Shown here piece after piece: positions 6,722 to 46,968 of a stretch of DNA of 46,968 nt. The stretch is taken from positions 1 through 46,968 of the forward strand of contig JAJPJL010000085.1 in NCBI GenBank assembly GCA_021324255.1, given 5' to 3'. The number at the start of each line of letters is the position of its first letter. Positions within the stretch are counted from its first letter, which is position 1. The notes below the pieces were generated by a model, which had not been told where the DNA came from, did not search any database, and saw only the letters and a program-made list of their open reading frames with translations. Both the position numbers and the translations under genes were made by a program. Source of the stretch: Bacillota bacterium (GTDB lineage: Bacteria > Sysuimicrobiota > Sysuimicrobiia > Sysuimicrobiales > Segetimicrobiaceae).

Positions 6722-6856
6722 ATGGATTTGCCACGACCGGAGGCGGCGCGTGCGTTCGCGCTGAGCTTCCATCCGCCCCGCGTCATTCGACCGCCGCTGT
6801 GCCCGGGCCGCGATCGCCGTGAGCGCGCCGGACCCGCGGGGAGCGACCGCCCGTGA
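6722..6856 (+). CDS. Possible small upstream ORF (44 aa) translationally coupled to sirC
   Basis: ATG at 6722 preceded by GGGAGGAT at 5-nt spacing. The stop TGA overlaps the sirC GTG start (GTGA). The product is low-complexity (MDLPRPEAARAFALSFHPPRVIRPPLCPGRDRRERAGPAGSDRP), so this is speculative. Confidence 0.2.
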   Translation: MDLPRPEAARAFALSFHPPRVIRPPLCPGRDRRERAGPAGSDRP

Positions 6857-7494
6857 GCCGTTACTATCCGGTCTCGCTTGACCTCGCCGGCCGGCGCTGT
6901 GTCGTGTTGGGCGGCGGATCGGTTGCCCAACAAAAAGTCCTCGGGTTGCTGGACGCAGGAGCACGCGTCGTGGTGATCGCCGAGTCGGTCACGCCCGGGC
7001 TGGATGCCCTCGCGTCGCACGGACGCGTCGAGATCACGAGACGCGCGTACCGGCGAGGTGATCTCACGGGAGCGTTCCTGGCGATCGCCGCGGGCGATCG
7101 TGGGATGCACCCGGCCGTGTGGGATGAAGCCGCCGGCGGACGCATCCTCCTCAATGCCGTGGACGACGCCCCGTACTGCCATTTCATCGCACCGGCCATC
7201 CATCGCCAGGGCGAGCTCGTCATTGCCGTCTCCACGGCGGGTAAAAGCCCGGCGCTCGCCGTCCGCCTGCGAAACCGCATCGCCAAGCTCGTCGGCCCGG
7301 AGTACGGGGTCCTCCTCGAGATCCTGGGCGAGTTGCGGCCCGCGGTGGCGGCACGAGAACCTGACCCCGCTCGCCGCGCGGCGTTGTGGTACCGCCTCGT
7401 GGATTCGGATGTGCTCGACCATGTGCGGCGCGGTGATGCGGCGGGCGCCCGCGAGCGTCTCGCATCGTTGGTTCGTGCCGGAGCCGGCCGGTAA
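6853..7494 (+). CDS. Precorrin-2 dehydrogenase / sirohydrochlorin ferrochelatase (SirC / CysG N-terminal domain-like)
   Basis: Rossmann motif LDLAGRRCVVLGGGSVAQQKVLGLLDAGARVVVIA. The CysG-N-like remainder is present (…ILLNAVDDAPYCHFIAPAI…AVSTAGKSPALA…). Stop/start overlap (TAATG) with cobA. Confidence 0.85.
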   Translation: MSRYYPVSLDLAGRRCVVLGGGSVAQQKVLGLLDAGARVVVIAESVTPGLDALASHGRVEITRRAYRRGDLTGAFLAIAAGDRGMHPAVWDEAAGGRILLNAVDDAPYCHFIAPAIHRQGELVIAVSTAGKSPALAVRLRNRIAKLVGPEYGVLLEILGELRPAVAAREPDPARRAALWYRLVDSDVLDHVRRGDAAGARERLASLVRAGAGR

Positions 7495-8489
7495 TGCACG
7501 TCACGGGCGGCGCGGGCTCGGGCACGACCGCCGCAGTTCCCACAGCACGGTGCGACGCGCGTGTCTCCGGAGCGGGACGCACGATCGGCGCGGTGCGGCC
7601 CGGGGCCGTCTACCTCGTCGGCGCCGGCCCGGGCGATCCCAAATTGATCACCGTGCGCGGGCTCGAGGTCCTGCGCGCCTCTGACGTCGTCGTCTACGAT
7701 CGGCTCGCCCACCCCGCGCTTCTTCAGGAAGCGCCGCACGCGGCGGAACGCATCTACGCGGGGAAGCGGCCGGGACACCACACGCTCCGGCAGGAGCAGA
7801 TCAACACCTTGTTGATCGACCGCGCCCGCGGGGGGGCGACCGTCGTGCGGCTCAAAGGGGGAGACCCCTTCGTATTTGGTCGCGGCGGCGAAGAGTGCGA
7901 AGCCTTGCGCTCGGCCGGTGTCCCGTTTGAGGTGGTCCCGGGCGTGACCGCGGCGATCGCGGTCCCGGCGTACGCGGGCATCCCCGTGACCCACCGGCGC
8001 CACGGCTCCGCCTTTGCGGTCGTGACGGGCCACGTGGGCGGCAACCGGCGGGGTCCCGACTGGAGCGCGCTCGCGAGGATGCCCGTGCTGGTGGTGCTGA
8101 TGGGTCTGCGGGCGCTTCCCGAGACGTGCCGGCGCCTGATCGCTCACGGACGCGACGCCCGCACACCGGCGGCGGTTGTGAGCCTCGGAACGACCGCGCG
8201 GCAGATCACCGTCACCGGCACGCTGGGGACGATTGCGCAGCGCGCGCGCGCGGTGGCGCTGCCGGCGCCCACCGTGTGCATCGTCGGGGACGTGGCGCGC
8301 CTGGGGCAGACACTGCGTTGGTTCGCGCCCGAGCGTCACGTACCCGAGGGCTCCCCGGGCCCGAGCCCGATCTGGGGCGCCCCACGGCCGCCCGCGCGGC
8401 TCGATGCCCGATCAGACATCCGGACCCGTACGCGAACTCCGGCGTCCGCCCCGGCCGCATGCGCCGCGCGATGGCCTGACAAGGTATGA
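7494..8489 (+). CDS. cobA: Uroporphyrinogen-III C-methyltransferase (SUMT)
   Basis: [46 protein letters not shown] and [18 protein letters not shown] are the tetrapyrrole methylase signatures. Low-complexity N- and C-terminal extensions are present. Confidence 0.85.
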
Positions 8490-10381
8490 CACGAAGCGAC
8501 ACCCCGCATGAATCGCCTGCGCGCCGGCCCGGTCCGGCACCCGGCGGGCCCGCCGGGTTGCGGGTCCCGCTCACCGCCGGTCACGCCGGGCAACTCGAGG
8601 CACTCCTTGCAACGCTGTCGCGAGAGGAAGCGCTGTGGATCAGCGGGTACCTGGCCAGGGTTGCGCTGCAGGAATGCGCCGGCGTCCCCGCGGCGCCGTC
8701 CACCGCGCCGCCCGCCACCGAACCAATCACGATCCTCTACGGCTCGGAGACCGGTCATGCCGCAACGGTGGCGAAGCGCTTGGGCGAATTCGCCTCCGCT
8801 CGAGGCCTCCCAGCGCGCGTCGTCGATATGGCGGCGTTTCGCCCCCAGGAACTGACGAACGTCACGCACCTCGTCGTGGTGACGGCCACCCACGGCGACG
8901 GCGCGCCCCCCGACCCGGCGGCCGGCTTCTATGAATTCCTCCACAGCCGAAAAGCGCCGCGGCTCGAGCACACGACGTTCGCCGTGCTGGGTCTTGGCGA
9001 CTCCAGCTACGAACGCTTCTGCCAGACGGCCAAGGACTTCGATCGCCGGCTGGAGGAACTGGGCGCCCGGCGGCTGCTCGACCGCGTCGACTGCGATACC
9101 GACTACGAGGAACCCGCCGGCGCCTGGATCGAGGCCGTTCTCGCGCGCCTGACGTCGAACGGCGACGCCTCGCCAAGCGGGACGCGCAACGGGTCGAGCG
9201 CACGCGCCGTGCTCCGCACGGCGTCCCCGGACGGCGCGGCGCCGGAAGCCACCGCGCCGTCGTACGACCGCCGGAGGCCATTCCCTGCCGAGATCGTCGA
9301 CAGCCTCGTGTTGAACGGCCGCGGTTCGGATAAGGAGACGCGCCACCTCGAACTCTCCCTCCGCGGCTCCGGGTTGACGTATGAGCCTGGCGACTCGCTC
9401 GGCGTGGTTGCGGAGAACGACCCCGCGCTCGTCAGCGAGCTGATCGAGACGCTCGCGCTGGACCCGGACGAACCGGTCGCGGGCGTTGCGGGCGAGACGA
9501 CGCTAGCGCGGGCGCTGACGACGGATTACGAGATCACCACCCTGACGCCGCGCTTCATCGCGCGCTACGGGGACGCCGCTCAGGCGGAAACGCTCCGCAC
9601 GTTGACCCGCCCGGACGAGCAGAGCCGTCTCAGCGCTTACCTGGCCGGACGGCGGATCATCGATGTCGTCACCGCGTTCCCGGTGAGAGGGCTCCCGGGC
9701 GCGGCGTTCGTCGGCATGCTCCGGAGGCTCGAGCCCCGGCTCTACTCGATCGCGTCGAGCCTGACGGTGTATCCCGAGGAAGCGCACCTCACCGTCGGCG
9801 TCGTGCGCTACCGGGCACACGGGCGGCGGCACACGGGAGTGGCGTCCGGCTATCTCGCGGACCGGCGCGCCGTCGGCGACGCCGTCTCCGTATACGTCGA
9901 GCGAACCGAACACTTTCGGCTGCCCCGGGATCCCGCAGCGCCCATCATCATGATCGGCGCCGGCACCGGTGTGGCGCCGTTCCGCGCGTTCGTCCAGGAA
10001 CGGCAGGCCATCGGGGCAACGGGCCGCAGCTGGCTGCTGTTCGGCGATCGTCGCTTCCGCATCGACTTCCTCTATCAGGTCGAGTGGCAGCGCGCGCTCC
10101 GCGAGGGCCCACTCAGCCGCATGGATGTGGCGTTTTCGCGCGACCAGCCGGAGAAGGTGTACGTGCACCATCGCCTGTTGGAGGCGGCGCGCGACATCTA
10201 CGCGTGGATCCAGGACGGCGCCTACCTCTACGTGTGCGGGAGCGCAGACCGCCTGGCGCCGTCGGTTCACGAGACGCTGATCACGATCGTGGAGCAGCAG
10301 GGACACGTGGACCGTGGGCGCGCCGAGGAGTACGTCAAGAACCTGCAGCGGGAACGGCGCTACCAACGGGACGTCTACTGA
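8486..10381 (+). CDS. cysJ: Sulfite reductase [NADPH] flavoprotein alpha subunit
   Basis: Flavodoxin-like domain ([19 protein letters not shown]…, [18 protein letters not shown]), FAD-binding (RLYSIASS) and NADPH-binding ([22 protein letters not shown]) ferredoxin-reductase domains. 631 aa. ATGA overlap with cobA. Confidence 0.85.
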
Positions 10382-10394
10382 ACGGAGCGCGACG

Positions 10395-12146
10395 ATGACG
10401 ACGGCAGACCGTGGCACGGACCGAAGCCGGGATCTCACCCAGCCCTTGGAGCGGCTGCACCACAACGAGACGATCAAGGCCGAGAGTCGCTACCTCCGCG
10501 GCTCCATCGCGGAGGGCCTGGTCGACCCGGTGACCGGTGCGATTCCCGGGGACGAGGCGCCGCAGATCCTCAAATTCCACGGGGTGTATCAGCAGGACGA
10601 CCGCGATCTCCGCGCCGAGCGGCGGCGCCAGAAGCTGGAGCCCGCCTACCAGTTCATGGTGCGCGTGCGTCTGCCCGGCGGCACGTGCCGGCCCGACCAG
10701 TGGCTCAGGCTGGACGCGTTGGCGCGTGAACACGCCAACGGCACCCTCCGGCTCACGACGCGGCAGACCTTCCAGTTCCACGGCGTGCTGAAGCGGGACC
10801 TGAAAGCAACGATCCAGCGCATCCACGCCGCGCTGCTGGACACGATCGGCGCGTGCGGCGACGACAATCGCGGGGTGATGTCCTCGCCCAACCTCGACCA
10901 GTCGGCAATCCACGCACAAGTGTACCCGCTGGCGAAACAGCTCAGCGACGCGTTGCTGCCGCGCACGCGCGCCTACCACGAAATCTGGTTGGACGAGACG
11001 CCGGTCGCGGGCGGTGACCGCGAAGAGGAGCCCATCTACGGCCGCACGTACCTGCCCCGGAAGTTCAAGCTGGGGCTGGCGATCCCGCCGACCAACGACG
11101 TCGACATCTACACGCAAGACCTCGGGTTCATTGCGATCGCCGAGGGCGATCGGCTGGCGGGCTTCGATGTGTGCGTCGGCGGCGGCATGGGCCGCTCCGA
11201 CAACGAGCCCGCCACGTACCCGCGGCTCGCGGATGTGATCGGATTTTGCGCCCCGGAGCAGGTCGTGGCGGTGGCCGAGCAGGTCGTCGGCATCCAGCGC
11301 GACTTCGGCGATCGTGTCGACCGGAAGCACGCGCGCTTGAAGTACACCATCGACGACCGCGGGCTGGAGTGGTTCCGCGGCGAGCTGCATCGACGCCTGG
11401 GCTGGCACCTCGGGGACGCGAGGCCGTTCCGCTTCGACACCAACAGCGACCGCTACGGGTGGACGGAGGCGCTCCGTGGCCGCTGGCACTATGCGCTGTT
11501 CGTCGAAAACGGGCGAGTCCGGGACGGCGAGGCCCTGCAACTGATGACGGCCCTGCGCGAGATTGCGAGCGTCCACACGGGCGAGTTCCGCCTCACACCG
11601 AACCAAAACCTGATCGTGGCGAACGTCCCGGCCGAGGAGCGGGACCGGATCGACCGCATCCTCGAGGCGCATGGGGCCATGGCCCCTGCGCGGCAGAGCG
11701 TCCTTCGCCGCCACGCGGTCGCGTGCGTCGCGCTGCCGACGTGCGGGCTGGCGATGGCGGAGAGCGAGCGCTACCTCCCGTCCCTCCTTACCAAGCTCGA
11801 GGCCATTGCGGCATCATGCGGGCTCGAGCGCGACCCCGTGATCATTCGAATGAGCGGCTGTCCCAACGGGTGCTCGCGCCCGTACGTCGCCGAGATCGGG
11901 TTCACGGGCCGCGCGCCCGGCAAATACAACGTATATCTCGGCGGCGGGTTTCACGGCCAGCGGCTCAACAAGCTCTTCCTGGAAAACGTCGGGGAGGCGC
12001 AGATCCTGGAGGGGCTCGCGCCGGTCATTCGACGCTACGCCGCCGAGCGGCTGCCGGCCGAGCGCTTCGGCGACTTCGTGATTCGTGTCGGGTACGTCAA
12101 GGAGGTACGAGCGGGTCGCGAGTTCAACGACGAGGACCAAGGCTAA
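10395..12146 (+). CDS. cysI: Sulfite reductase hemoprotein beta subunit (siroheme/4Fe-4S)
   Basis: NirA/CysI repeats ([15 protein letters not shown]…, [13 protein letters not shown]…, [38 protein letters not shown]). ATG at 10395 lies 14 nt after the cysJ stop. The track's longer 10314 start overlaps cysJ with non-homologous sequence. Confidence 0.9.
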
Positions 12147-18385: not shown

Positions 18386-18865
18386 CTACGGGACGTCCGC
18401 GCCCACCAGCACCCTCCCCTCCCGCCCGGCGCGCGTCCGCTCGCACTCCTCGAGCGATCGGTGCCCGGATTCACGAATACCGCGTACGATCTCTCGAGTC
18501 GTCAGGTATCCGGCGAGATAGGAAACGATCGCCCGTTGGGCTGTCAAATCGACGCTGGCGTGCAGGACACCGGGCAACGCGCGCAACGCGTTCTCAATCC
18601 GGCCTACGCACGACGAACAGGCGCTGCCGTCCACTGCGACGACCGCGTGTGAGGTCCGGACCTCGCAGCCCACCGAGCGCAACACTTCCGCAAGCTTCAG
18701 GAGGTCCACGCGGTTGGGGTCGAATGCGATGCGCACCTTCTCGGTGGCCGCGGTCATTGACACGAGGTGCACGCCGCAGACGTCGGTCAGAGCGGATGTA
18801 ATATGCGCGGTCGATCCCGCAACATGTGTTCCCGCGATCGGTAGAAGAACGATGTGTTCGGGCAT
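18386..18865 (-). CDS. Tandem heavy-metal-associated (HMA) domain protein; the first domain lacks the CxxC site, the second has GSACSSC
   Basis: Two beta-alpha-beta-beta-alpha-beta HMA-like repeats: IVLLPIAGTHVAGSTAHITSAL…VRIAFDP (Cys replaced) and VVAVDGSACSSCVGRIENALRALPGVLHASVDL…AIVSY (CxxC intact). Confidence 0.6.
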   Translation of the reverse strand: MPEHIVLLPIAGTHVAGSTAHITSALTDVCGVHLVSMTAATEKVRIAFDPNRVDLLKLAEVLRSVGCEVRTSHAVVAVDGSACSSCVGRIENALRALPGVLHASVDLTAQRAIVSYLAGYLTTREIVRGIRESGHRSLEECERTRAGREGRVLVGADVP

Positions 18866-19405
18866 GGACAGACACCTCCGTTGACGATAGGTTCGCCATG
18901 ATGCGCGAACAGTTCGAGGCTCACGCGATGCGTGGAGCGCCCCTCGAGGGCGTGATCGCGCCTCCGTGGCGCTTCGTAGAAACCCGCGTGGCGTTGGCTT
19001 CGACGGGGTCGGTGCGTCGGATCCGTTACACGTTCAACCCGTGCGGCGCGATGCAGACGCAGGAGAAGCCGGAACTCTCTTAACGCGACCTATGTAGGGT
19101 ACCATCGAAGATCAGAATTGTCAAATTCGGGACCCTGATGTCCCTGATGTGTGATTGCTGAGTGAATCTGTCACCCTGGGAGGATGAATAACGAGACAGG
19201 CACCTCGACCACGAGGGCGCATCAGCGCGTGCATGTCTTGTCTCGTGTCCACGACGGGGTGCTGCGCACCGGGGAGGTGGCGCGTGCTGGACGGAGACGA
19301 GGACCCTCCGTCTCGAGCCGTGCGGGGCCCGCCAGGATCGGACGCCGAAGTACCGAAAATGATTAGATTCGCCGGATTCTGCACCAACGTCCGAGGAGGC
19401 GGAGC

Positions 19406-20467
19406 GTGTCTTCTGCGATTCCACAACCGGTCCTTGCGCGGCTCACGCGCGCCGCCATCTTTCTGGTCGTGACGGTGAACCCGGGCCCGGACCATCGTGC
19501 CGCCGTGCGGGCGTTGTGTGGAGATCTGTCCGCTCTCCTACGCGCCGTGGGATTCCGTGACCTCGAGGGCCACCTGTCCTGCGTCATGGCGTTTGGCTCC
19601 GACGCCTGGGACCGGCTGTTCGGGCCGCCGCGGCCGAAAGCGCTCCATCCGTTCCGAGAGATCCGCGGCCGGCATCATGCCGTCTCCACGCCGGGGGATA
19701 TTCTGTTCCACATCCGCGCCGCGCGCATGGACCTCTGCTTCGAGCTGGCGATGCAGATCATGGCCCGGCTCGGCTCCGCCGTGTCCACGACGGACGAAGT
19801 CCATGGCTTCACGTACTTCGACGACCGCGATTTGATCGGGTTCGTCGATGGGACGGAGAACCCCGCGGAGCAGGCGGCGATTGACGCCGCCATCATCGGC
19901 GACGAGGATCCGGCGTTCGCCGGTGGCAGCTACGTGGTCGTACAGAAGTATCTGCACGACCTGCAGGGGTGGAATGCGCTGCCCATCGAGGAGCAAGAAC
20001 GCATCATCGGTCGCACCAAGCTGTCCAACATCGAGCTGGACGATGCCGTGAAACCCACCTCGGCACACAACGAGTTGACGACGATCGTGGAAGACGGGGA
20101 GCAGCTGGAGATCGTCCGTGACAACATGCCGTTCGGGGACGTGGGGAAGGGCGAGTTCGGCACGTATTTCATCGGCTATGCCCGGTCCCCTCACCGGATC
20201 GAGCAGATGCTCCTGAACATGTTCGTCGGCCGGCCGCCGGGGAATTACGACCGGCTGCTCGACTTCAGCCGCGCGGTGACCGGCACGCTGTTTTTCGCGC
20301 CGTCGGCAACGTTCCTGGAGACCGTGGCAGCCGGGGACGCGGCGCCGGCGGTCGCCGGCCCCCCGGTTGACGGCGCGCCGGGCACGCCCGCCGACGAGGC
20401 ACGAGCGGCGTCGCGTGATGGTTCGCTCGGCATTGGTTCATTGAAAGGAGACCGCGAGCATGACTAA
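19406..20467 (+). CDS. Dyp-type peroxidase with a C-terminal encapsulin cargo-loading peptide
   Basis: DyP signatures (…AAIFLVVTV…, GFVDGTENP, …FGTYFIGYARSP…). The C-terminal tail …DGSLGIGSLKGDREHD matches the family-1 encapsulin targeting-peptide consensus (SxGIGSLKG). Confidence 0.9.
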   Translation: MSSAIPQPVLARLTRAAIFLVVTVNPGPDHRAAVRALCGDLSALLRAVGFRDLEGHLSCVMAFGSDAWDRLFGPPRPKALHPFREIRGRHHAVSTPGDILFHIRAARMDLCFELAMQIMARLGSAVSTTDEVHGFTYFDDRDLIGFVDGTENPAEQAAIDAAIIGDEDPAFAGGSYVVVQKYLHDLQGWNALPIEEQERIIGRTKLSNIELDDAVKPTSAHNELTTIVEDGEQLEIVRDNMPFGDVGKGEFGTYFIGYARSPHRIEQMLLNMFVGRPPGNYDRLLDFSRAVTGTLFFAPSATFLETVAAGDAAPAVAGPPVDGAPGTPADEARAASRDGSLGIGSLKGDREHD

Positions 20468-21266
20468 TCTTCACCGAGAACTCGCTCCTATCTCGGACCT
20501 GGCATGGGCGCAGATCGAGGAGGAGGCGTCCCGCACCCTCAAGCGCCACCTGGCGGCGCGGCGCGTCGTGGACGTGCAGGGCCCGAAGGGCGTCGATTTC
20601 TCGGCCATCGGTACCGGCCATCTCCGGCCGCTCGAGACGCCGGGCGAAGGGATCCATGCCGCGCAACGCGAGGTGAAGGCGCTCGCCGAGTTGCGGGTCC
20701 CCTTCGAACTCGACCGTCAGGCGATCGATGACGTGGAACGCGGCGCCAGCGATTCGGACTGGCAGCCGTTGAAGGAAGCGGCGCGCAAGATCGCCTTCGC
20801 CGAGGATCGGGCCGTCTTTGAGGGGTACGCGCCGGCGGGGATCTCAGGCATCCGTCAGGGAACCAGCCATCCGGTGCTGACCCTCCCGGCCGACGTGAAG
20901 GACTATCCCGACGCCGTGGCCCGGGCGGTCACGCAATTGCGCCTCGCCGGCGTCAACGGGCCCTATGCTCTTCTGCTCAGCACAGATGCCTACACCGCCG
21001 TGAGCGGAGGCAGCGATGATGGATACCCGGTCCTGCGGCACGTCGCGCGTCTCGTGGACGGGGAGATCATCTGGGCCCCGGCCATCTCCGGCGGCGTGGT
21101 CCTCACGACTCGCGGCGGCGACTTCGCGTTGCACATCGGCCAGGACATCTCGATCGGGTATCTCGCCCATACCGATGCCGCCGTGCGACTGTACCTACAG
21201 GAGACGTTCACGTTCCTACAGTTGACCGCGGAAGCCGCGGTGGTGCTGACGCCCCCGGGCCGGTAA
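20460..21266 (+). CDS. Family 1 encapsulin nanocompartment shell protein (linocin M18-like, HK97 fold)
   Basis: MTNLHRELAPISDLAWAQIEEEASRTLKRHLAARRVVDVQGP… and …VLTTRGGDFALHIGQDISIGYLAHTDAAVRLYLQETFTF… align along their full length to M. tuberculosis Rv0798c and T. maritima encapsulin. The start overlaps the DyP stop (ATGA). Confidence 0.9.
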   Translation: MTNLHRELAPISDLAWAQIEEEASRTLKRHLAARRVVDVQGPKGVDFSAIGTGHLRPLETPGEGIHAAQREVKALAELRVPFELDRQAIDDVERGASDSDWQPLKEAARKIAFAEDRAVFEGYAPAGISGIRQGTSHPVLTLPADVKDYPDAVARAVTQLRLAGVNGPYALLLSTDAYTAVSGGSDDGYPVLRHVARLVDGEIIWAPAISGGVVLTTRGGDFALHIGQDISIGYLAHTDAAVRLYLQETFTFLQLTAEAAVVLTPPGR

Positions 21267-21602
21267 CCGCGACGAGGGTCGCGAACGCCGCTTGCCCTTG
21301 ACCGCCGCGGCCAATGCCGCCGCCGGTGTGTAGTAGAGGTTGGCGCGATCGCATCGGCGGCATCATGACGCGGTCAATCGTGCCGTGGGCCGATCCGAGC
21401 GTGCGAAGCGGGCGCGCGCCTCACGCGCGCCGAGGCGCGATAGGAAAGGCCCACCGGGCCCGCGAAGGACCGCCGGACGGAGGAGAGCAGAGGGGCCCAA
21501 CGGCACGGGAGCCGTGGAGGGGCGGTGCGAGAGGCATCACCGATCCCGTGACTCCACGGCCGGAGGACCGCGCTCTCGAGCCGCCGCGGGGAGGGACCGC
21601 CG

Positions 21603-23600: not shown

Positions 23601-23676
23601 TGGCGGGCCCGGAGGGAATCGAACCCCCGACCTGAGGCTTAGGAGTCCCCTGCTCTATCCACTGAGCTACGGGCCC
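23601..23676 (-). tRNA. tRNA-Arg (anticodon CCU)
   Basis: Reverse complement GGGCCCGUAGCUCAGUGGAUAGAGCAGGGGACUCCUAAGCCUCAGGUCGGGGGUUCGAUUCCCUCCGGGCCCGCCA. It has a 7-bp acceptor stem, D-arm GCUC/GAGC, anticodon loop CUCCUAA and T-loop GGTTCGATTCC. The CCA is encoded. Confidence 0.85.
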
Positions 23677-25070: not shown

Positions 25071-25685
25071 CTAATACCACGCGATCGCCACGTCTTGTAA
25101 CGGGACCGTCACTCCCACGCCGGAGTCCACGAAGACACGCCACCGTGGGAGCGTCCGATCAATGTCGCCGATGATGCTGCGTTTGCCATCCAAGCATCCA
25201 TAGTTGACGCGCATGCCGGCTACGCCCGCGGTGGCGCCGGTTAAGAAGGTGCACCGCGTGCCGTCGCCGAGCTCGAGCGCCCAGGGGAGCCCGCGACCAA
25301 TGCCGGACGCGTTGGCTTGTGCGCGGGCCGGTTCCTTGGTGGGGCGCAGCACCGTCACCCGGGGGGACCACGGCGTCTCCGGACACGCGAGCGCCGGCGT
25401 GCTGCCCTCGAATCCCTGGAAGCATGGGTCCATGATGGCGTTCCCGCTCATGCACCGCCAGGCGTCGTCTCTTGCCTGATCCGCGACCGACGCCGCGAAG
25501 CACTCTCCGGAGACCCGCCGCGTCACGAGCACTCCCGGCCGCAGCGCGCCGGGGCCGAACGCGGCGTAGACGCGGATCGCGGTGGCGCTCGGTGCGGACT
25601 GCGCATGGAGGCGGCCCGGCGGGGCCGCCAGCAACCACGCACCCGCCGCCGCGATGATTACCCACGAAGCCGATCGCCGTGCCAT
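25071..25685 (-). CDS. Hypothetical secreted protein (signal peptide, 6 Cys)
   Basis: ATG at 25685 with GGAGG at 5 nt. Signal peptide MARRSASWVIIAAAGAWLLAAPPGRLHA/QS. No family recognised. High GC3. Confidence 0.6.
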   Translation of the reverse strand: MARRSASWVIIAAAGAWLLAAPPGRLHAQSAPSATAIRVYAAFGPGALRPGVLVTRRVSGECFAASVADQARDDAWRCMSGNAIMDPCFQGFEGSTPALACPETPWSPRVTVLRPTKEPARAQANASGIGRGLPWALELGDGTRCTFLTGATAGVAGMRVNYGCLDGKRSIIGDIDRTLPRWRVFVDSGVGVTVPLQDVAIAWY

Positions 25686-30352: not shown

Positions 30353-30892
30353 CTACCGGCACCTCGCGTTCCAGTTGCGATCACCGTCACAGTACCGGGG
30401 ATCGTACCGATGACCATAATCGTAGGCCGGCGCGGGATGCGATGTGGCGTTGTGCAGGATCAGGTAGGCGAGGCCACCCAGGACCAGCGCCCCGAGCGCG
30501 ATCCCCACGGCCGTGGAACTCGACGGCGGCGCGGCCACGCCGGCAGGCGCGGGCGGGGATGCGCCCTGCGGCGCGCTGACGTCCAGGCGGCCGAGGATGA
30601 ACTGGCTGTTTTCCGGGACCAGGTAGGCCGTCACCGGCGCGCCCGCCAAAGGCGCCAGCGCGCACACGGAGGTCAACCGGCCGTTCACGTAGATCGCGGT
30701 CTGGTTGGTGACCGGAAAGGTAGCGGCGCCGCCGGATGTATTCAACGTCAGCTCCTGCGCCTGGCAGTTTGCCGCCTCCAACGTTCCCTGCACCTGCAGC
30801 GGTTGCTGGGCTTGAGCGCTGCCGGCCTCCGCAAATCCAAAGCACGCGAGCAAGAGCCCTGTGATGACCGCGGTCACTCGACGCATCGTCAT
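30353..30892 (-). CDS. Hypothetical exported/membrane-anchored protein (signal peptide plus C-terminal TM helix)
   Basis: Signal peptide MTMRRVTAVITGLLLACFGFAEAGSAQA. Pro/Ala-rich linker, a C-terminal TM (AVGIALGALVLGGLAYLIL) and a short Tyr/Arg-rich tail. No family recognised. Confidence 0.55.
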   Translation of the reverse strand: MTMRRVTAVITGLLLACFGFAEAGSAQAQQPLQVQGTLEAANCQAQELTLNTSGGAATFPVTNQTAIYVNGRLTSVCALAPLAGAPVTAYLVPENSQFILGRLDVSAPQGASPPAPAGVAAPPSSSTAVGIALGALVLGGLAYLILHNATSHPAPAYDYGHRYDPRYCDGDRNWNARCR

Positions 30893-34420: not shown

Positions 34421-35188
34421 TTACTGACGTCGCGGTGCGTAGGCTCGCACGCGCTCCCAGATCTGCCGGTCGACACGCGGCGCGGCGTGCCGGAGGGTCG
34501 CGCGCGGCCCGCGCGACACGATTCGCCCCTCCGGGATTTGCCAGCATCGCGACAGCAACCGATTGACCGCTGCGAGCACCGCGGGGGTACCGTGCCAGAT
34601 TAGCCGGCCGCTGCGCGGAAAGGTCCCGGCGGGCCAGTTTCCGTCCAGGTAACCGCCGAGAAACGGCGCCGCGAGGTCCTCGGGAATGTCGTCGAGCAGC
34701 GCCGGGTCCTCGCCGTGGGCGTCCGACGGGATCCCCCAGGGCATCAGCGCCTTGCAGAGGCTGGGTTCCCGCACGTAGGCCTGCCACCCGAGGAGGCTGC
34801 TCTCGCAGTACTCCTGCCGTACGCCGGGACCCGTGATCTCCTGCATGAACCTCATCATATGGACGTCGGCCCGATCACCCAGCGTCACCACGATGGCCAT
34901 GGACGGGCCTTGTCCGAGAATGCGTCCGGCCGCCGTCAGGAAGCCCACCCAGTAGAGCTGCGCCTCGGCCGGGGCGCGTCCCGGCGACGGGGCGCGCGCG
35001 CTCAACAGCTCCGCCGGATCGGACAGCCGGGCATGGTTTGCCGGCGCCAGCACGCGATTGACGACGGTAATGGAAAATTGGCAGCGCTCGGCGATCTCGG
35101 TGGCCGCCCAGCCCTTGCGCGCGGCCGCGCGAATCGCCGCGATCTGGGCGCGCGCCTCGGGCGCCAGCTCGCGCCCCCGGAGGCTCAT
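34421..35188 (-). CDS. HTH domain protein with two degenerate LAGLIDADG-like motifs (homing-endonuclease-derived fold?)
   Basis: N-terminal HTH-like helix pair (PEARAQIAAIRAAARKGWAATEIAERCQFSITVVNRVL). The first motif is YWVGFLTAAGRI (acidic residues lost) and the second is PFLGGYLDGNW. It lies immediately upstream of, and co-oriented with, the S41 peptidase. Confidence 0.6.
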   Translation of the reverse strand: MSLRGRELAPEARAQIAAIRAAARKGWAATEIAERCQFSITVVNRVLAPANHARLSDPAELLSARAPSPGRAPAEAQLYWVGFLTAAGRILGQGPSMAIVVTLGDRADVHMMRFMQEITGPGVRQEYCESSLLGWQAYVREPSLCKALMPWGIPSDAHGEDPALLDDIPEDLAAPFLGGYLDGNWPAGTFPRSGRLIWHGTPAVLAAVNRLLSRCWQIPEGRIVSRGPRATLRHAAPRVDRQIWERVRAYAPRRQ

Positions 35189-35959: not shown

Positions 35960-37585
35960 TTGGTGAGAAGCGGTCGCAAGACACGCTCGATGTGGTACTT
36001 CTTCCTCACAGTAGCGCTCGCGCTCGCGATCCCCGCCCTCTATGTCAACGCGGCCGCCACGGTGGCCCACGCGCAGACGTCAGGCAACGGCGGCGCCGGC
36101 GGCGCGGGTGGCGTCGGCGGTAGCGGCAACGGGCTTCCCGGCAGTCCCGGGACCACGGTCGTTGGCGGCGGCACGGGCGGGGCTGGCGGTGCCGCTGGAA
36201 CGACCGGCGGTGGCGGCGGTGCGGGCGGCGCCGGCGGCAGCGGCGGCAGCAACAATGCGAACACCTCCGGTAACGGCGGCAACGGCGGCAACGGCGGGAA
36301 CGGCAGCAATTCCAACAGTGACGGCGGCGCGGGTGGCGCGGGTGGCGCCACCTCCGGCGGTAACGGAGGTGCCGGTGGTGCCGGCGGCTCGAACAACGGG
36401 AACGGCGGTGCTGGTGGCAAGGGCGGGAACGGCGGCAGCTTCAACGTCAACGACTCCGGGAACGGCGGCGCGGGTGGTGCCGGCGGCAACGCGTCGAACA
36501 GCGCGGGGGCAACCCCCGCGGGCGGAAACGGTAACGGTGGCAACGGCGGCGCAGGCGGCGCCAACCATGGCGGCAACGGCGGTGCGGGCGGCGCCGGCGG
36601 TAATGGAAACGGCAACGGCGGTGCGGGCGGTGGCGGTGGGAACGGCGGCAGCAACGACACGAGCGCATCCGGCAACGGTGGTGCGGGCGGCGCCGGCGGA
36701 GCGAGCGGTATCAACAACGGTGACGGCGGCGCAGGCGGCGCCGGCGGTGCAGGCACCGGCGGCGCGGGTGGCACGGGCGGCAAGGGAGGCAACAACAACG
36801 GTGACGGCGGCGCCGGCGGCAACGGCGGCGCCGGCGGCACGGGCAACAGCGTTTCGTCCGGCAACGGCGGCGCGGGTGGCGCAGGCGGCGCCGGCGGGAA
36901 CGGGAACGGGACCGGCGGAACCGGCGGCGCGGGCGGAACAGCCGCGGGCGCGGCCGGCGGGGCCGGCGGTAGCAACAACGGCAACGGCGGTGCGGGCGGC
37001 AACGGCGGCGCCGGCGGGAACCTGAATCTCGGCAACACGGGCGCCGGCGGTCTCGGCGGATCGGGCAACGGTGGTGCCGGCGGTAAGGGCGGTGCCGGCG
37101 GCAACAACAACGGGATGGGCGGTACCGGCGGGACCGGCACCAATACGGGCGGAACCGGCGGCAGCAACAACGGCAACGGCGGCGCCGGCGGCAACGGCGG
37201 CGCGGGCGGCAACGCCAACGTCAACGGCTCCGGGAACGGCGGTACGGGCGGCAACGGCGGCGCGGGCGGCAACAACAACGGCACGGGCGGCAACGGATCC
37301 GGAACCGCGGCCGGCGGCGCAGGCGGTAGCAACAACGGCAACGGCGGTGCGGGCGGCAACGGCGGCGCCGGCGGCAACAGCAACACCAACGGTTCCGGCA
37401 ACGGGGGCGCGGGCGGCAACGGGGGCGCGGGCGGCAGCAGCAACGGTAACGGCTCGGGCACAAGCGGGAACGGCAACGGCGGCGCCGGAGGCAACGGTGG
37501 AGCCGGCGGGAACAACAACGGCGGCGGCTCCGGCAACGGCGGGGCCGGCGGGGCCGGCGGCTCAGGCGGGAACAACAACATCTAA
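35960..37585 (+). CDS. Secreted glycine/asparagine-rich repeat protein (PGRS-like; ~500 aa of GNGGAGG/GGAGGNNN repeats)
   Basis: AAGGAGG Shine-Dalgarno 5-8 nt before the TTG/GTG start. Signal peptide (M)VRSGRKTRSMWYFFLTVALALAIPALYVNAAATVAHA/QT. The repeats are reminiscent of mycobacterial PGRS domains (…GNGGAGGAGGSNNGNGGAGGNGGAGGN…). The 513-aa Pro-rich ORF on the opposite strand is its antisense shadow. Confidence 0.65.
   Translation: MVRSGRKTRSMWYFFLTVALALAIPALYVNAAATVAHAQTSGNGGAGGAGGVGGSGNGLPGSPGTTVVGGGTGGAGGAAGTTGGGGGAGGAGGSGGSNNANTSGNGGNGGNGGNGSNSNSDGGAGGAGGATSGGNGGAGGAGGSNNGNGGAGGKGGNGGSFNVNDSGNGGAGGAGGNASNSAGATPAGGNGNGGNGGAGGANHGGNGGAGGAGGNGNGNGGAGGGGGNGGSNDTSASGNGGAGGAGGASGINNGDGGAGGAGGAGTGGAGGTGGKGGNNNGDGGAGGNGGAGGTGNSVSSGNGGAGGAGGAGGNGNGTGGTGGAGGTAAGAAGGAGGSNNGNGGAGGNGGAGGNLNLGNTGAGGLGGSGNGGAGGKGGAGGNNNGMGGTGGTGTNTGGTGGSNNGNGGAGGNGGAGGNANVNGSGNGGTGGNGGAGGNNNGTGGNGSGTAAGGAGGSNNGNGGAGGNGGAGGNSNTNGSGNGGAGGNGGAGGSSNGNGSGTSGNGNGGAGGNGGAGGNNNGGGSGNGGAGGAGGSGGNNNI
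36070..37570. repeat. Degenerate GGN-codon tandem repeats (GGC GGC GCC GGC GGC AAC …) underlying the Gly-rich CDS
   Basis: Nucleotide-level repetition of ggcggcgccggcggc / aacggcggcgcgggcggc units across ~1.5 kb. It is coding and has no spacer-repeat architecture, so it is not a CRISPR array. Confidence 0.5.
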
Positions 37586-37639: not shown

Positions 37640-37812
37640 GCGCTTCCAGCCGCGAGGTCTTTCAACCCGTGGAGCGGGCGGCGGGTCCCGTGCGCTTCTC
37701 CCTCGTTCGATTCTCGCCTCGTTACACGATCTTAATGCGGTCTCGCTAGAAAAGAGTTAGAATTTAGGCTGAGGAGGAACTGCGCCGCCGTTCGGTACGC
37801 TCGATATGGTGT

Positions 37813-37887
37813 GGCGCGCCCGGAGGGATTTGAACCCCCGACCTACGGATTCGTAGTCCGGCGCTCTATCCGCTGAGCTACGGGCGC
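37813..37887 (-). tRNA. tRNA-Arg (anticodon ACG)
   Basis: Reverse complement GCGCCCGUAGCUCAGCGGAUAGAGCGCCGGACUACGAAUCCGUAGGUCGGGGGUUCAAAUCCCUCCGGGCGCGCCA. Cloverleaf with anticodon loop CUACGAA. CCA encoded. Confidence 0.85.
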
Positions 37888-37989: not shown

Positions 37990-38508
37990 ATGATGCGGCG
38001 GTGGCTTTGGATCTCTTTCACGGTCCTGACGCTCGCGACGGCAGGGGCGCCCGCGTACGCGCAGGGGATCAACCCGGTTCTTCCCGGACAGGCCATCGGC
38101 GGATTCCGGCTCGGCGAAGACGTCAACACCATGGTGAGGTCGCTGGGTCCGGTTCACTCCGCGGATGATATTCCGAGCAGCAACCTCACGGCGTATTTCT
38201 GGCCGCTGAGGCGCATCGGCGCGATCGCCGACAAGACGTCCAGCAAGGTGGTCGCGCTCGTCGTCTCGATGGACGATGGCTACCGGACCGACAAGGGCAT
38301 CGCCGCGGGCGCGGAGATGGAGTCTGTACGAAGCGCCTACGGGCAGGAAGACAGCGTGGACAGCCACGAGGACGACGATACCCTGGTGTACGACAAGATC
38401 GGCGTGGCGTTTCTCGTGGACAAGACCGGAGCGCTGGGCAGCCGCGTGTCGGCGATCTTCGTCTTCAACCCCGGCCAGTACAAGACGATCTTCCAGCAAA
38501 CCCCGTAG
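37990..38508 (+). CDS. Hypothetical secreted protein (signal peptide)
   Basis: MMRRWLWISFTVLTLATAGAPAYA/QG signal peptide. High GC3. No family recognised. 172 aa. Confidence 0.65.
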   Translation: MMRRWLWISFTVLTLATAGAPAYAQGINPVLPGQAIGGFRLGEDVNTMVRSLGPVHSADDIPSSNLTAYFWPLRRIGAIADKTSSKVVALVVSMDDGYRTDKGIAAGAEMESVRSAYGQEDSVDSHEDDDTLVYDKIGVAFLVDKTGALGSRVSAIFVFNPGQYKTIFQQTP

Positions 38509-38619: not shown

Positions 38620-40992
38620 TCAGCGAGGCGTGTGGGCCAGTCGGGTCTCGAGCGTCCGCCGCGCACGGGCCACGTCGTCGCGGAGCGCCGCGATGCCGGC
38701 GGCGCGGCCGGCGCCCTCGCCCGTCGCGCCGCCGGTCAACACCAACACCCACAGCAGCCTGTGCACGTCATCCACGCCGGCGACTCGGTACCGCGCAGCG
38801 GTCTGCGGCGGACGGCGGCCGACTTTGATCGTGAGCGCCGACTCGGGCAGCGCACGGAAGGCGTCCTCATCCGCCCAATCGTCGCCGATGTAGATCGGTT
38901 GAACGCGCATCGCCCAGGCGTCCCCAAACGTTTGCATCAAGATGCGCCGGACCGCGGCGCCCTTGTCCCACGCCACGTTGGGCCGCACTTCGAGGGCGTG
39001 GGCGCCGAGCTGGACGCCGATTTGCCCGGGCGCCGCCTGCCCGGTTTCCTCGAACACGACATCCCGGACCCGTTCGAGAAACGCGTGTGGCGTGCGCCGG
39101 TAGTGCACCGTGAGCGTCAGCCCCTTGTCCTGCAACCAGGCGCCGGGAATCTCACGCAGCCGGCGTGCAAGCCGCACGGCGCATGCTTCGATCGCCGGAC
39201 GCGCCCGCTCCGCGTCGGGCAGCACCCAGGTCGCGTCCCCATCCGTCATCTCCAATCCGTAGTTCCCGGCGTACACGAAGCCGTCGATTCCAATGCGCCC
39301 CGTCAAATCGTCGAGCGCGCGACCGCTGACGATGGCGACCAGGGTCGCGGGACGCTCCGCCAGCCGGAGCAGCGCGGTTCGGGCATCGGGGGGCAGGGAC
39401 ACCCGCGACGGATCGTCGTGGAATGGCGCCAGGGTCCCGTCGAAGTCCAGGAAGACGGCCAATGGGCGTCCGCTGCGCGATGTGTGCTCGACGGCCGCCG
39501 CCGCCTCGGCCTTGGGGCGGATGGCCGTGCCGGCGTGGAGCAGCCGGGACGCGGTCTCGAGGTGCTTGCCCATCCAGCGATACACGTCCTGCGCAAACAC
39601 GTGCCGCCGCAGGTGATCGAGCCGCTGCCGCCGCTCTTCCACGGGCATCGCAAGCGCCCGCGCCATCGCCGCGGCGCAACCGGCCGCGTCGTACGGATTG
39701 ATGGACACGCTGCCGGTGAGCTCGTCGTGCGCACCGGCGAACTCGCTGAGGAGCAGCACACCGCTCACATCCACCTGGCATGCCACGAATTCCTTGGCCA
39801 CGAGGTTCATGCCGTCCTGAATGGAACTGACGACGCACAGGTCCGCGAGCCGGTAGAGCGCGGCCATGCCGGCCGGTGGCAGCGGATCGGGCAGCGCGAT
39901 AATCGGAATCCAATCCGGCGTGCCGTGGGCCGCGTTGAGCCGCTCGATCCGCTCCTCGATCCGAGCCCGGAGATCGCGGTACACCTTGATCTGTCCCCGG
40001 CTCGCGGCGAGCTTTTGAATGAACACGACGCGGCCGCGGTATTCCGGCCACCGGGACAGCAATTGATCGATGCCGCGGAGCCGCTTGAGGATGCCCTTCG
40101 TGTAGTCGAGCCGATCCACGCTGAGCACGATCCGCCGCCCCTCGAGACCGAGCACGCGGCGGAACCCATCCATCCACCGCTCGGCCTGCGGCGACCGCGC
40201 AACCTCGTCGAGGGCCGCGGCGTCCACGCTGATCGGAAACGCCTCCACCACCGTCCGCCGCCCCGCGTACCAGACGGTGTTGCCGGACACGTGCGCCCCG
40301 AGATCGCGCCGCGCGCACTCGAGGAAGTGCTCGACGTGCCGATCGTGTTGAAACGTGAGGAGGTCGTTCGCCAGCAGGCCGTCGAGGAGCGCCACCCGCT
40401 CCGGGCAGACCCGAAACGCGTCCCACGCGGGCCACGGCACGTGCCAGAAATGCATGAGAAACAGATCCGGCCGAAGCTCCCGCAGCGCGCGCGGACACGT
40501 CGCCAGGTGGTAATCGTGCAGCCACACGACCGCGTCGCGAGGGGCCTCCGCGGCGACCGCCTCCGCGAACCGCCGGTTGACCGCCTGGTACGTCTCCCAG
40601 TACCGCGTCCGCACGCGGACTTGGTCCATGACCATGTGGCAGAGCGGCCACAAGACCTGGTTCGCATAGCCGTAATAGTAGCCGTCGACGTCCGGCCGGG
40701 AGAGCGCGATACGCTTGAGCGTGTAGCGCGGGTTGTCATCCGGCACCTGCACCCGGCCATCCGCGTCGGCGACCGCGAAGTCCGCGTCACCGTCGCCCCA
40801 TGCGATCCAGGTGCCCGAGACAGCCTGCATCACCGGGTCCAGGGCGGCCACCAGTCCCCCGGCGGGACGCTCCACGCTGATGCCTCCCGGGCCGGTTCGA
40901 TGCGCGTAAGGTTCGCGATTGCTGACGATCACCAGCTGGCGCCCTTTCAGCATGCCGTCGAGTTGCTCAAGGCGCCCTCGTGCGATGACCAT
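38620..40992 (-). CDS. otsA: Bifunctional trehalose-6-phosphate synthase (GT20, OtsA) / trehalose-6-phosphate phosphatase (HAD, OtsB) fusion
   Basis: N-terminal GT20 (RQLVIVSNREPY…, …GYANQVLWPLCH…, …VDRLDYTKGI…, LVAKEFVAC… (GT20 nucleotide-sugar-binding region)). The C-terminal ~270 aa is HAD trehalose-phosphatase (VFLDFDGTLAP… motif I, …GKG/ …IYIGDDWADEDAF motif IV). GGAGGTG at 6 nt before the ATG. 790 aa. Confidence 0.9.
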   Translation of the reverse strand: MVIARGRLEQLDGMLKGRQLVIVSNREPYAHRTGPGGISVERPAGGLVAALDPVMQAVSGTWIAWGDGDADFAVADADGRVQVPDDNPRYTLKRIALSRPDVDGYYYGYANQVLWPLCHMVMDQVRVRTRYWETYQAVNRRFAEAVAAEAPRDAVVWLHDYHLATCPRALRELRPDLFLMHFWHVPWPAWDAFRVCPERVALLDGLLANDLLTFQHDRHVEHFLECARRDLGAHVSGNTVWYAGRRTVVEAFPISVDAAALDEVARSPQAERWMDGFRRVLGLEGRRIVLSVDRLDYTKGILKRLRGIDQLLSRWPEYRGRVVFIQKLAASRGQIKVYRDLRARIEERIERLNAAHGTPDWIPIIALPDPLPPAGMAALYRLADLCVVSSIQDGMNLVAKEFVACQVDVSGVLLLSEFAGAHDELTGSVSINPYDAAGCAAAMARALAMPVEERRQRLDHLRRHVFAQDVYRWMGKHLETASRLLHAGTAIRPKAEAAAAVEHTSRSGRPLAVFLDFDGTLAPFHDDPSRVSLPPDARTALLRLAERPATLVAIVSGRALDDLTGRIGIDGFVYAGNYGLEMTDGDATWVLPDAERARPAIEACAVRLARRLREIPGAWLQDKGLTLTVHYRRTPHAFLERVRDVVFEETGQAAPGQIGVQLGAHALEVRPNVAWDKGAAVRRILMQTFGDAWAMRVQPIYIGDDWADEDAFRALPESALTIKVGRRPPQTAARYRVAGVDDVHRLLWVLVLTGGATGEGAGRAAGIAALRDDVARARRTLETRLAHTPR

Positions 40993-41083: not shown

Positions 41084-41097
41084 CATGGCCCGGCTGG

Positions 41098-41240
41098 CCT
41101 TCTCTCGATGCCTACGGGGTTAGCTGACGGGCTCGGGCCGAGAGACTTGCCCTACCTGCGCGCACACACAGGCTGCGCCCCACGAACTTGGGTCCCCCGT
41201 TCCCCGAACGGTCCTCGGGGATTCGGCACATCGTGCGTTG
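41098..41240 (-). promoter_or_regulatory. ydaO/kimA-type cyclic-di-AMP riboswitch aptamer in the 5' leader of otsA-otsB
   Basis: The minus-strand RNA contains hallmark ydaO blocks in the right order: GCCGAAUCC…GGGGAAC…CGGGGGACCCAAG…GGUAGGGCAAGUC…CCCGAGCCCGUCAGCUAACCCCGUAGGCAUCGAGAGAAGG. Compare B. subtilis/T. tengcongensis GCCGAAUCC…GGGGGACCCAA…GGUAGGGCGAAA…CCCGACAGCUAACUCCGGAGGCAAU / …CGUAAGCGUUCGAGAGGAGG. It is followed by an intrinsic terminator and preceded by an AT-rich TACAAT -10-like element at ~41270. Confidence 0.6.
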
Positions 41241-46890: not shown

Positions 46891-46968
46891 GGAGGGGTGG
46901 CCGAGCGGTCCAAGGCAACGGTTTGCTAAACCGTGACCCCTTAACCGGGGTCCGTGGGTTCGAATCCC
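46891..46968 (+). tRNA. tRNA-Ser (anticodon GCU), 3' end truncated by the window edge
   Basis: GGAGGGGUGGCCGAGCGGUCCAAGGCAACGGUUUGCUAAACCGUGACCCCUUAACCGGGGUCCGUGGGUUCGAAUCCC… has a class II tRNA with a long variable arm. Anticodon loop UUGCUAA. T-arm GGUUCGAAUCC present. The acceptor 3' strand lies beyond 46968. Confidence 0.8.

Follow-up and report, generated by a model that had tools for sequence, protein, structure and literature searches.

The subject of this report is a pair of overlapping genes on contig JAJPJL010000085.1 of assembly GCA_021324255.1, which comes from an uncultured soil bacterium placed by GTDB in the Sysuimicrobiota. The first gene encodes a DyP-type peroxidase and the second a protein of the family-1 encapsulin shells. 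From this point on, the window refers to the whole stretch of DNA analysed, 46,968 nucleotides in length. An initial annotation, made from the letters and a list of open reading frames (ORFs), had described the pair as a peroxidase-packaging operon, and the ORF list indeed has both frames at the ends it gave, 19406-20467 and 20460-21266 on the forward strand. The features of the locus are collected in Table 1.

The peroxidase and shell genes

The catalytic core of the peroxidase, approximately residues 1-305, matches both Dyp_perox_N (PF04261, E-value 1.7e-31) and Dyp_perox_C (PF20628, 3e-61), which points to the two-domain ferredoxin-like DyP fold, and the whole protein matches NCBIfam model TIGR01413 at 2.4e-89. 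A comparison with all PDB sequences returned 67 matches with encapsulin-associated DyPs on top. The best of these is KpDyP of Klebsiella pneumoniae (8U4Z, 2.7e-147), to whose core the window protein is 69% identical (211/306 residues). For cargo and shell together, the matches ranking below K. pneumoniae are a related enterobacterial system (9E5E; PMC11623594), Mycobacterium smegmatis (7BOK/7BOJ, the DyP at 2.6e-126), Rhodococcus jostii RHA1 DypB (3QNR, 1.9e-119), M. tuberculosis Cfp29 and the shell chain 6I9G.

The GxxDG motif takes the form GFVDG, with its Asp148 encoded at nucleotides 19847-19849. His221 (nucleotides 20066-20068) and Arg238 (20117-20119) align, at a constant offset of +4, with His225 and Arg242 of KpDyP, which are known there as the proximal haem ligand and a distal residue, respectively (PMC10960027). 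Asn240 is also kept, and the same Asp/Arg/His/Asn active site occurs in R. jostii DypB, likewise a B-class DyP. DypB is best known for the oxidation of lignin and Mn(II) in vitro, substrates that cannot be transferred to the window protein. The N-terminus aligns with that of the cytoplasmic KpDyP from residue 2, so that no Tat or Sec signal is present, and the equivalog model for Tat substrates of the EfeB type (TIGR01412) scores only 47.5 bits against a cut-off of 428. Fold, motif and lack of an export signal together assign the protein, as far as sequence can tell, to the encapsulated subgroup of class B. By analogy with KpDyP, a haem-loaded active hexamer to which it is 69% identical, it would be expected to bind haem, to form hexamers and to catalyse H2O2-dependent oxidation.

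The core gives way to a linker, the sole part of the protein whose alignment to KpDyP is poor or gapped; in the KpDyP structure, the corresponding 60 residues at the C-terminus are disordered (PMC10960027). Re-translation of the C-terminus yields ...SRDGSLGIGSLKGDREHD* (the protein ending in ...ASRDGSLGIGSLKGDREHD), so that the intact targeting peptide claimed in the initial annotation is borne out as GSLGIGSLK. This agrees with GSLxIGSLK, the consensus of 1193 encapsulin-associated cargo DyPs, and an alanine scan of the KpDyP peptide has found its three hydrophobic residues, its second Gly and its Lys to be essential (PMC10960027). Every one of these (Leu, Ile, Leu, Gly and Lys) is kept. The K. 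pneumoniae core reads GSLNIGSLK, so that Gly here replaces Asn at the variable position, and the tail is KGDREHD here as against KKE... there. In a six-frame search of the window for [ST]Lx[IVL]G[SDT]L, the DyP peptide was the only match, and no second cargo was found.

The second gene encodes a protein that matches Pfam Linocin_M18 (PF04454) at 1.1e-99 over model positions 1-253 of 253. Its score of 356 bits with the equivalog model NF041155, 'family 1 encapsulin nanocompartment shell protein', exceeds the cut-off of 100. Both profiles by which the initial annotation had proposed to check itself, PF04454 and PF04261, are therefore matched, and neither a shell frame foreign to encapsulin models nor a cargo without its C-terminal motif, the two outcomes it had named as fatal, was found. 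The protein has neither a fused cargo nor a cNMP domain and belongs to the Linocin_M18/encap_f1 class of approximately 265-290 residues. Its best PDB matches are the K. pneumoniae shell KpEnc (8U50/8U51, 1.3e-116), with which it shares 67.5% identity (179/265) in an ungapped alignment. In KpEnc, binding of the targeting peptide depends crucially on Arg34 and Asp229, with contributions from Asp38, Ile230 and Thr217; all of these but Thr217 were probed there by mutation (PMC10960027). All five residues are identical here, at the same positions. Across 39 close shell homologues, no variation is seen at R34, D38 or D229, and conservation is at least 90% at T217 and I230. Shell family, adjacent cargo with its peptide, peptide pocket and absence of a phage module thus concur, at the level of sequence, in placing the system in family 1.

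The closest solved relatives are accordingly those of K. pneumoniae (KpDyP, 8U4Z; KpEnc, 8U50/8U51; Jones, Andreas & Giessen 2024, PMC10960027), in which gene order, haem ligands and the pocket residues R34/D38/T217/D229/I230 are all the same. The initial annotation had likened the operon to Rv0799c/Rv0798c of M. tuberculosis, which is right as to kind and not as to nearest relative, the K. pneumoniae proteins (67-69% identity) being closer. The mycobacterial DyP encapsulins (Rv0799c/Rv0798c Cfp29, 7PHM, 7P1T and 9FN9; M. smegmatis, 7BOJ/7BOK) are of the same family and operon type, with shells matching at 4e-101 to 2e-103. Their scores of 341-349 bits, as against 392 for the closest shell, mark them as more distant, and their operons often include accessory oxidoreductase or cupin genes, none of which occur here. 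The shell chain 6I9G matches at 6.5e-104; the PDB output calls it 'Linocin-M18' only, and we take it to be the Brevibacterium linens shell.

Table 1. Features of the DyP-encapsulin locus, in window coordinates
Feature	Position	Strand	Description and basis
Leader/promoter region 5' of the DyP gene	19084..19405	+	322 nucleotides, non-coding; no ORF with a coding signature in GC content at third codon positions (GC3)
Shine-Dalgarno sequence of the DyP gene	19393..19399	+	GAGGAGG, 6 nucleotides 5' of the GTG start; read from sequence
DyP-type B-class encapsulin-associated haem peroxidase (cargo)	19406..20467	+	353 residues, GTG start; profile and PDB matches
Flexible Pro/Ala/Gly-rich linker	20321..20419	+	residues 306-338, VAAGDAAPAVAGPPVDGAPGTPADEARAASRD, approximately 30 residues; composition
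Cargo-loading (targeting) peptide	20420..20446	+	GSLGIGSLK, residues 339-347, then tail GDREHD; consensus match
Shine-Dalgarno sequence of the shell gene	20444..20450	+	AAAGGAG, 9 nucleotides 5' of the ATG; inside the Lys347-Gly348-Asp349 codons
Gene overlap	20460..20467	+	8 nucleotides, ATGACTAA, shell ATG through DyP stop TAA; read from sequence
Family-1 encapsulin shell protein	20460..21266	+	268 residues, ATG start; PF04454, NF041155
GC-rich hairpin	21268..21283	+	CGCGAC-GAGG-GTCGCG, 6 base pairs, 2 nucleotides past the shell stop; minimum-free-energy and centroid structures

The gene junction and the distribution of the module

The initial annotation had proposed translational coupling through an ATGA overlap. 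An overlap is present, at eight nucleotides (ATGACTAA); the 4-nucleotide ATGA version does not hold. The letters ATGA do occur at 20460-20463, but the TGA there is out of the DyP frame, which reads ...GAG CAT GAC TAA and ends in the stop TAA at 20465-20467. The ribosome-binding site of the shell gene is embedded in the cargo gene, beginning in the codon for Lys347, the last residue of the targeting peptide, and running on into those for Gly348 and Asp349, the next two. Three codons used here, TTG, AAA and GGA, are in the minority in this window of 69% GC (12%, 17% and 11% of their respective families), as would be consistent with selection acting on the nucleotide sequence itself. Given the 8-nucleotide overlap and a shell ribosome-binding site lying within Lys-Gly-Asp codons, it is very probable that cargo and shell share one mRNA and that their translation is coupled.

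When GTDB was scanned with one genome for each species, 80 related loci were recovered, with shell identities of 73-82%; they belong to Acidobacteriota, Alpha- and Gammaproteobacteria, Verrucomicrobiota, Planctomycetota, Bacteroidota, Nitrospira and Binatia. A DyP lies immediately 5' of the shell gene in all 80, and GSLxIGSL[KR] is found directly 5' of the shell gene in 78. The overlap is of eight nucleotides (ATGAATAA) in 63 and of four in 12, for a total of 75 with one or the other. A Shine-Dalgarno-like motif stands in the same place in 74 of the relatives, and AAAGGA in 60 of the 80. With cargo-then-shell overlap being the norm in the 80 relatives, and with the catalytic and pocket residues kept here, the description of the locus as a complete peroxidase-packaging system holds up. 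In five loci (L030, L049, L051, L058 and L078), the DyP match is split or lies in a frame that stops elsewhere than at the start of the shell gene. Such cases may reflect a frameshift or truncation of the cargo gene beside an intact shell gene, or else an assembly error.

Beyond the two genes, the loci have little in common. When seven window neighbours were searched against the 80 related loci by tblastn, none proved to be shared, with the exception of one unrelated glycogen-debranching-like match, and clustering of the flanking ORFs gave no family that reached beyond 12 of the 81 loci. Most frequent was a long AAA+ chaperone-like ORF, a putative ClpB, in Bradyrhizobium-type loci. The closest two metagenomic relatives with neighbours examined, at 84-85% identity, have different flanks and no adjoining mobility gene. 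Because no neighbouring genes recur, the conserved unit is the two-gene module. The genes that adjoin the operon here encode a divergently transcribed protein with an HMA domain and an acyl-CoA-synthetase-like protein. Neither is shared by the related loci, and with flanks that are not conserved among relatives, both were rejected as members of the system. None of the annotated window neighbours that flank the operon is a transposase, integrase, formate dehydrogenase or RpoH-like gene. The enterobacterial operons, in contrast, lie in mobile regions bounded by transposons, where a conserved formate dehydrogenase is found upstream of them and a sigma factor resembling RpoH downstream (PMC10960027), and their hosts are unlike the high-GC (69%) uncultured soil bacterium found here.

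The DyP-shell pair appears to move as a self-contained cassette and to have been acquired horizontally in this lineage. Its spread over phyla fits frequent horizontal transfer, which has already been noted for family-1 operon types. Both genes have a GC3 of 0.82-0.83, neighbouring genes ranging from 0.78 to 0.95. As the module cannot be distinguished from its neighbours by this measure, the acquisition would not be recent, the cassette having since taken on the codon composition of its host.

These observations can be joined in a single, more tentative reading, which we rate at somewhat less than even odds as a whole. It would have a minimal, self-contained DyP-shell cassette, with no adjoining mobility gene in the window or in the two closest relatives examined, spread among soil phyla, at least eight in number and with protein identities of 73-87%, and land here in an uncultured lineage thriving in soil heated by a coal fire and perhaps related to Armatimonadota. 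It would further have the near-invariant K-G-[D/E], which comes after the part of the targeting peptide resolved in structures, kept less for binding to the shell than for its codons, AAA GGA GA-, which constitute the ribosome-binding site of the shell gene. If true, this dual-coding constraint on K-G-[D/E] would fix both the coupling of shell to cargo translation and their stoichiometry.

The exact shell protein is found on at least 24 independently assembled contigs, up to 1.3 Mb in length, in NCBI, JGI, ENA and Logan data. Identical proteins on so many independent contigs argue that the operon is not an assembly artefact. One of the contig sources, JBAIIA01, is a bulk assembly of soil sample Cen22 from fire-affected Centralia (PA), which had a temperature of 37.4 °C at the time of sampling. 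The shell protein is unnamed, and within the 90%-identity cluster of the peroxidase only a truncated member of 293 residues bears a name, JGI calling it 'putative iron-dependent peroxidase'.

Alternative readings and proposed mode of action

Taken together, these results describe a complete two-gene family-1 (classical) encapsulin system in which the DyP is the only cargo in the window, a reading to which we assign a probability of approximately 0.93. Nothing observed contradicts the encapsulin assignment. There are, nevertheless, several points that weigh against the full reading. The leader of the DyP gene has no Rfam match at E ≤ 1, folds no better than its shuffles (z = -0.49) and contains neither a sigma-70 consensus nor inverted repeats, so that no promoter or regulator was identified. 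At the opposite end of the operon, the hairpin past the shell stop lacks a U-tract, for which reason it is no better than possible as a transcript end; the terminator scan did not report it, and no terminator was identified. An AlphaFold2 model of the shell, built on an alignment of 39 sequences, was unusable, with a mean predicted local distance difference test score (pLDDT) of 37 and a predicted template modelling score (pTM) of 0.30. It therefore provides no independent confirmation of the fold, and the assignment rests on the 67.5% identity to 8U50. The low pLDDT is due to a shallow alignment of sequences that are approximately 80% identical to each other, and the poor model does not count against the shell fold. 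Lastly, assembly, cargo loading, triangulation (T) number, haem binding and activity are all argued from homology, and the physiological substrate is not known for any bacterial DyP encapsulin.

The missing promoter-like site and regulator would also suit a decaying, non-functional remnant, in which shell or cargo is no longer made, assembled or loaded. The fragmented or shifted DyP frames of L030, L049, L058 and L078, among others, lend this some plausibility by suggesting that decay may occur in the family. Against it, both ORFs here are intact and full length relative to the models, all catalytic and binding residues are kept, GC content by codon position has the signature of expressed host genes, and the same sequence recurs unchanged in many samples from different years. 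A remnant is therefore quite improbable. Still less credit is due to the notion that a defective prophage, or another remnant of an HK97-fold virus, left the 268-residue protein as its major capsid protein beside an unrelated DyP. Encapsulins and phage capsids have the HK97 fold in common and, according to a passage in PMC8346489, are sometimes confused. The shell has no match in PHROGs, however, and matches the family-1 encapsulin equivalog over its full length. No terminase, portal, protease, integrase or other phage-type gene is present among the annotated window neighbours, which are metabolic and housekeeping genes instead, and the gene upstream bears a targeting peptide specific to encapsulins. 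The lack of a PHROGs match, the non-phage neighbours and the encapsulin-specific cargo signal lead us to exclude a capsid. A reading of the shell as a secreted bacteriocin or antigen, rather than an intracellular compartment, survives in the Pfam name Linocin_M18 and in the JGI label 'linocin/CFP29 family protein'. All solved members of the family, including those 60-68% identical, are icosahedral shells that enclose cargo, and the N-terminus, MTNLHRELAPISD, shows no evident signal peptide and matches the conserved N-terminal helix of the shells. This historical interpretation is obsolete, and we regard its chances here as negligible.

Under the encapsulin reading, the DyP would use His221 to bind haem, Asp148 and Arg238 would lie on the distal side, and the protein would form hexamers of approximately 230 kDa, as judged from its homologues in K. 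pneumoniae, the mycobacteria and Brevibacterium. The linker would let the C-terminal GSLGIGSLK reach a pocket formed by Arg34, Asp38, Thr217, Asp229 and Ile230 on the luminal side of the shell P-domain. One or two DyP hexamers would thereby be trapped as 60 shell subunits self-assemble into a T=1 icosahedron of approximately 24 nm, an architecture that we infer to be shared with K. pneumoniae, as is loading in vivo. All relatives with checked architecture, namely the shells of K. pneumoniae, the related enterobacterial system and the mycobacteria, are T=1, and in the mycobacterial systems the DyP is loaded by its C-terminal peptide. The PDB chains that we take to have T=3 or T=4 architecture (EncA and others like it) are much weaker matches to the window shell, at 1e-7 to 1e-12. 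The five-fold pores, which measure approximately 9 Å in KpEnc, would be expected to admit H2O2 and small organic co-substrates.

The role of such a compartment is speculative. It may lie in the detoxification of peroxide, or in the oxidation of a co-substrate, under oxidative and possibly acid or heat stress. Chemistry of this kind, with an organic co-substrate, has been proposed for the M. tuberculosis and enterobacterial systems, the former reportedly contributing to the defence against oxidative stress.

No encapsulin class is more abundant than the DyP encapsulins, of which a 2021 catalogue lists 1,505 systems, and the protein collection searched here holds at least 8,000 shell homologues. 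With several DyP encapsulins already solved by cryo-electron microscopy, the locus has little importance beyond its correct annotation, which is useful because the exact proteins carry no encapsulin annotation. The organism is plentiful in soil that an underground coal fire has heated, and its peroxidase nanocompartment could be a robust chassis for biotechnology. The comparison with relatives shows clearly that the two-gene module, with its 8-nucleotide overlap and the ribosome-binding site embedded in the Lys-Gly-Asp codons, is what is conserved and transferred across phyla.

Surroundings and other features of the window

The small ORFs of the leader have no Pfam match. One of them, a 60-residue ORF at 19184-19366 with a faint resemblance to a helix-turn-helix protein, was rejected for its lack of both a coding GC3 signature and a Pfam match. 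On the 3' side of the operon, the hairpin sits in a structured intergenic region of 336 nucleotides, the fold of 21264-21602 having z = -2.5 against shuffles. The divergent HMA-domain protein (18386-18865, reverse strand) is 159 residues long, with the domain at residues 75-135 and the metal-binding motif GSACSSC. Its N-terminal half looks like a second, degenerate HMA repeat without cysteines, and it is not kept beside DyP-encapsulin operons elsewhere. A tRNA-Arg(CCT) gene lies at 23601-23676 on the reverse strand, 2.3 kb 3' of the operon, where no integrase or repeat hinting at an island boundary was seen. Two further tRNA genes are present, tRNA-Arg(ACG) at 37812-37887 (reverse strand) and a third at 46891-46968 (forward strand) that is cut by the window end.

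An assimilatory sulfite-reduction and sirohaem cluster occupies 6853-12146 on the forward strand. It comprises a sirohaem synthase-like NAD-binding/dimerisation protein, a tetrapyrrole methylase, a sulfite reductase flavoprotein (flavodoxin/FAD/NAD) and a NIR_SIR hemoprotein. A full-length riboswitch of the ydaO type, which senses cyclic di-adenosine monophosphate (c-di-AMP), is found at 41095-41238 on the reverse strand (RF00379, 92.9 bits). A gene for a fused trehalose-6-phosphate synthase/phosphatase (GT20 plus Trehalose_PPase; 38620-40992, reverse strand) begins approximately 100 nucleotides 3' of it. The position of the riboswitch at this distance upstream suggests that c-di-AMP controls the synthesis of the osmoprotectant trehalose in this organism. 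The named relatives of this OtsA-OtsB gene, 56-58% identical, belong to Armatimonadota MAGs, a slight hint as to the affinity of the host.

A 541-residue ORF at 35960-37585 (forward strand) starts with a signal-peptide-like N-terminus, MWYFFLTVALALAIPALYVNAAATVAHA, and continues for approximately 500 residues in Gly/Asn/Ala repeats such as GNGGAGGAGG and SNNGNGGAGGNGGAGGN. Its tandem repeats have periods of 9, 18, 42 and 165 nucleotides, it has no Pfam match, and its composition recalls the PGRS repeats of mycobacteria. These repeats explain why GC content reaches 0.77, and why both GC skew and AT skew are strong, at 36-38 kb.

Five ORFs of 170-340 residues have no Pfam match at E ≤ 0.01 and may encode lineage-specific proteins: 13-1035 and 37990-38508 on the forward strand, and 25071-25685, 30353-30892 and 34421-35188 on the reverse. 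All pass the filter for coding-type GC3 except for 34421-35188. This last ORF overlaps the call for a long S41-peptidase ORF by approximately 370 nucleotides, which implies that the start of the peptidase gene is probably further downstream.

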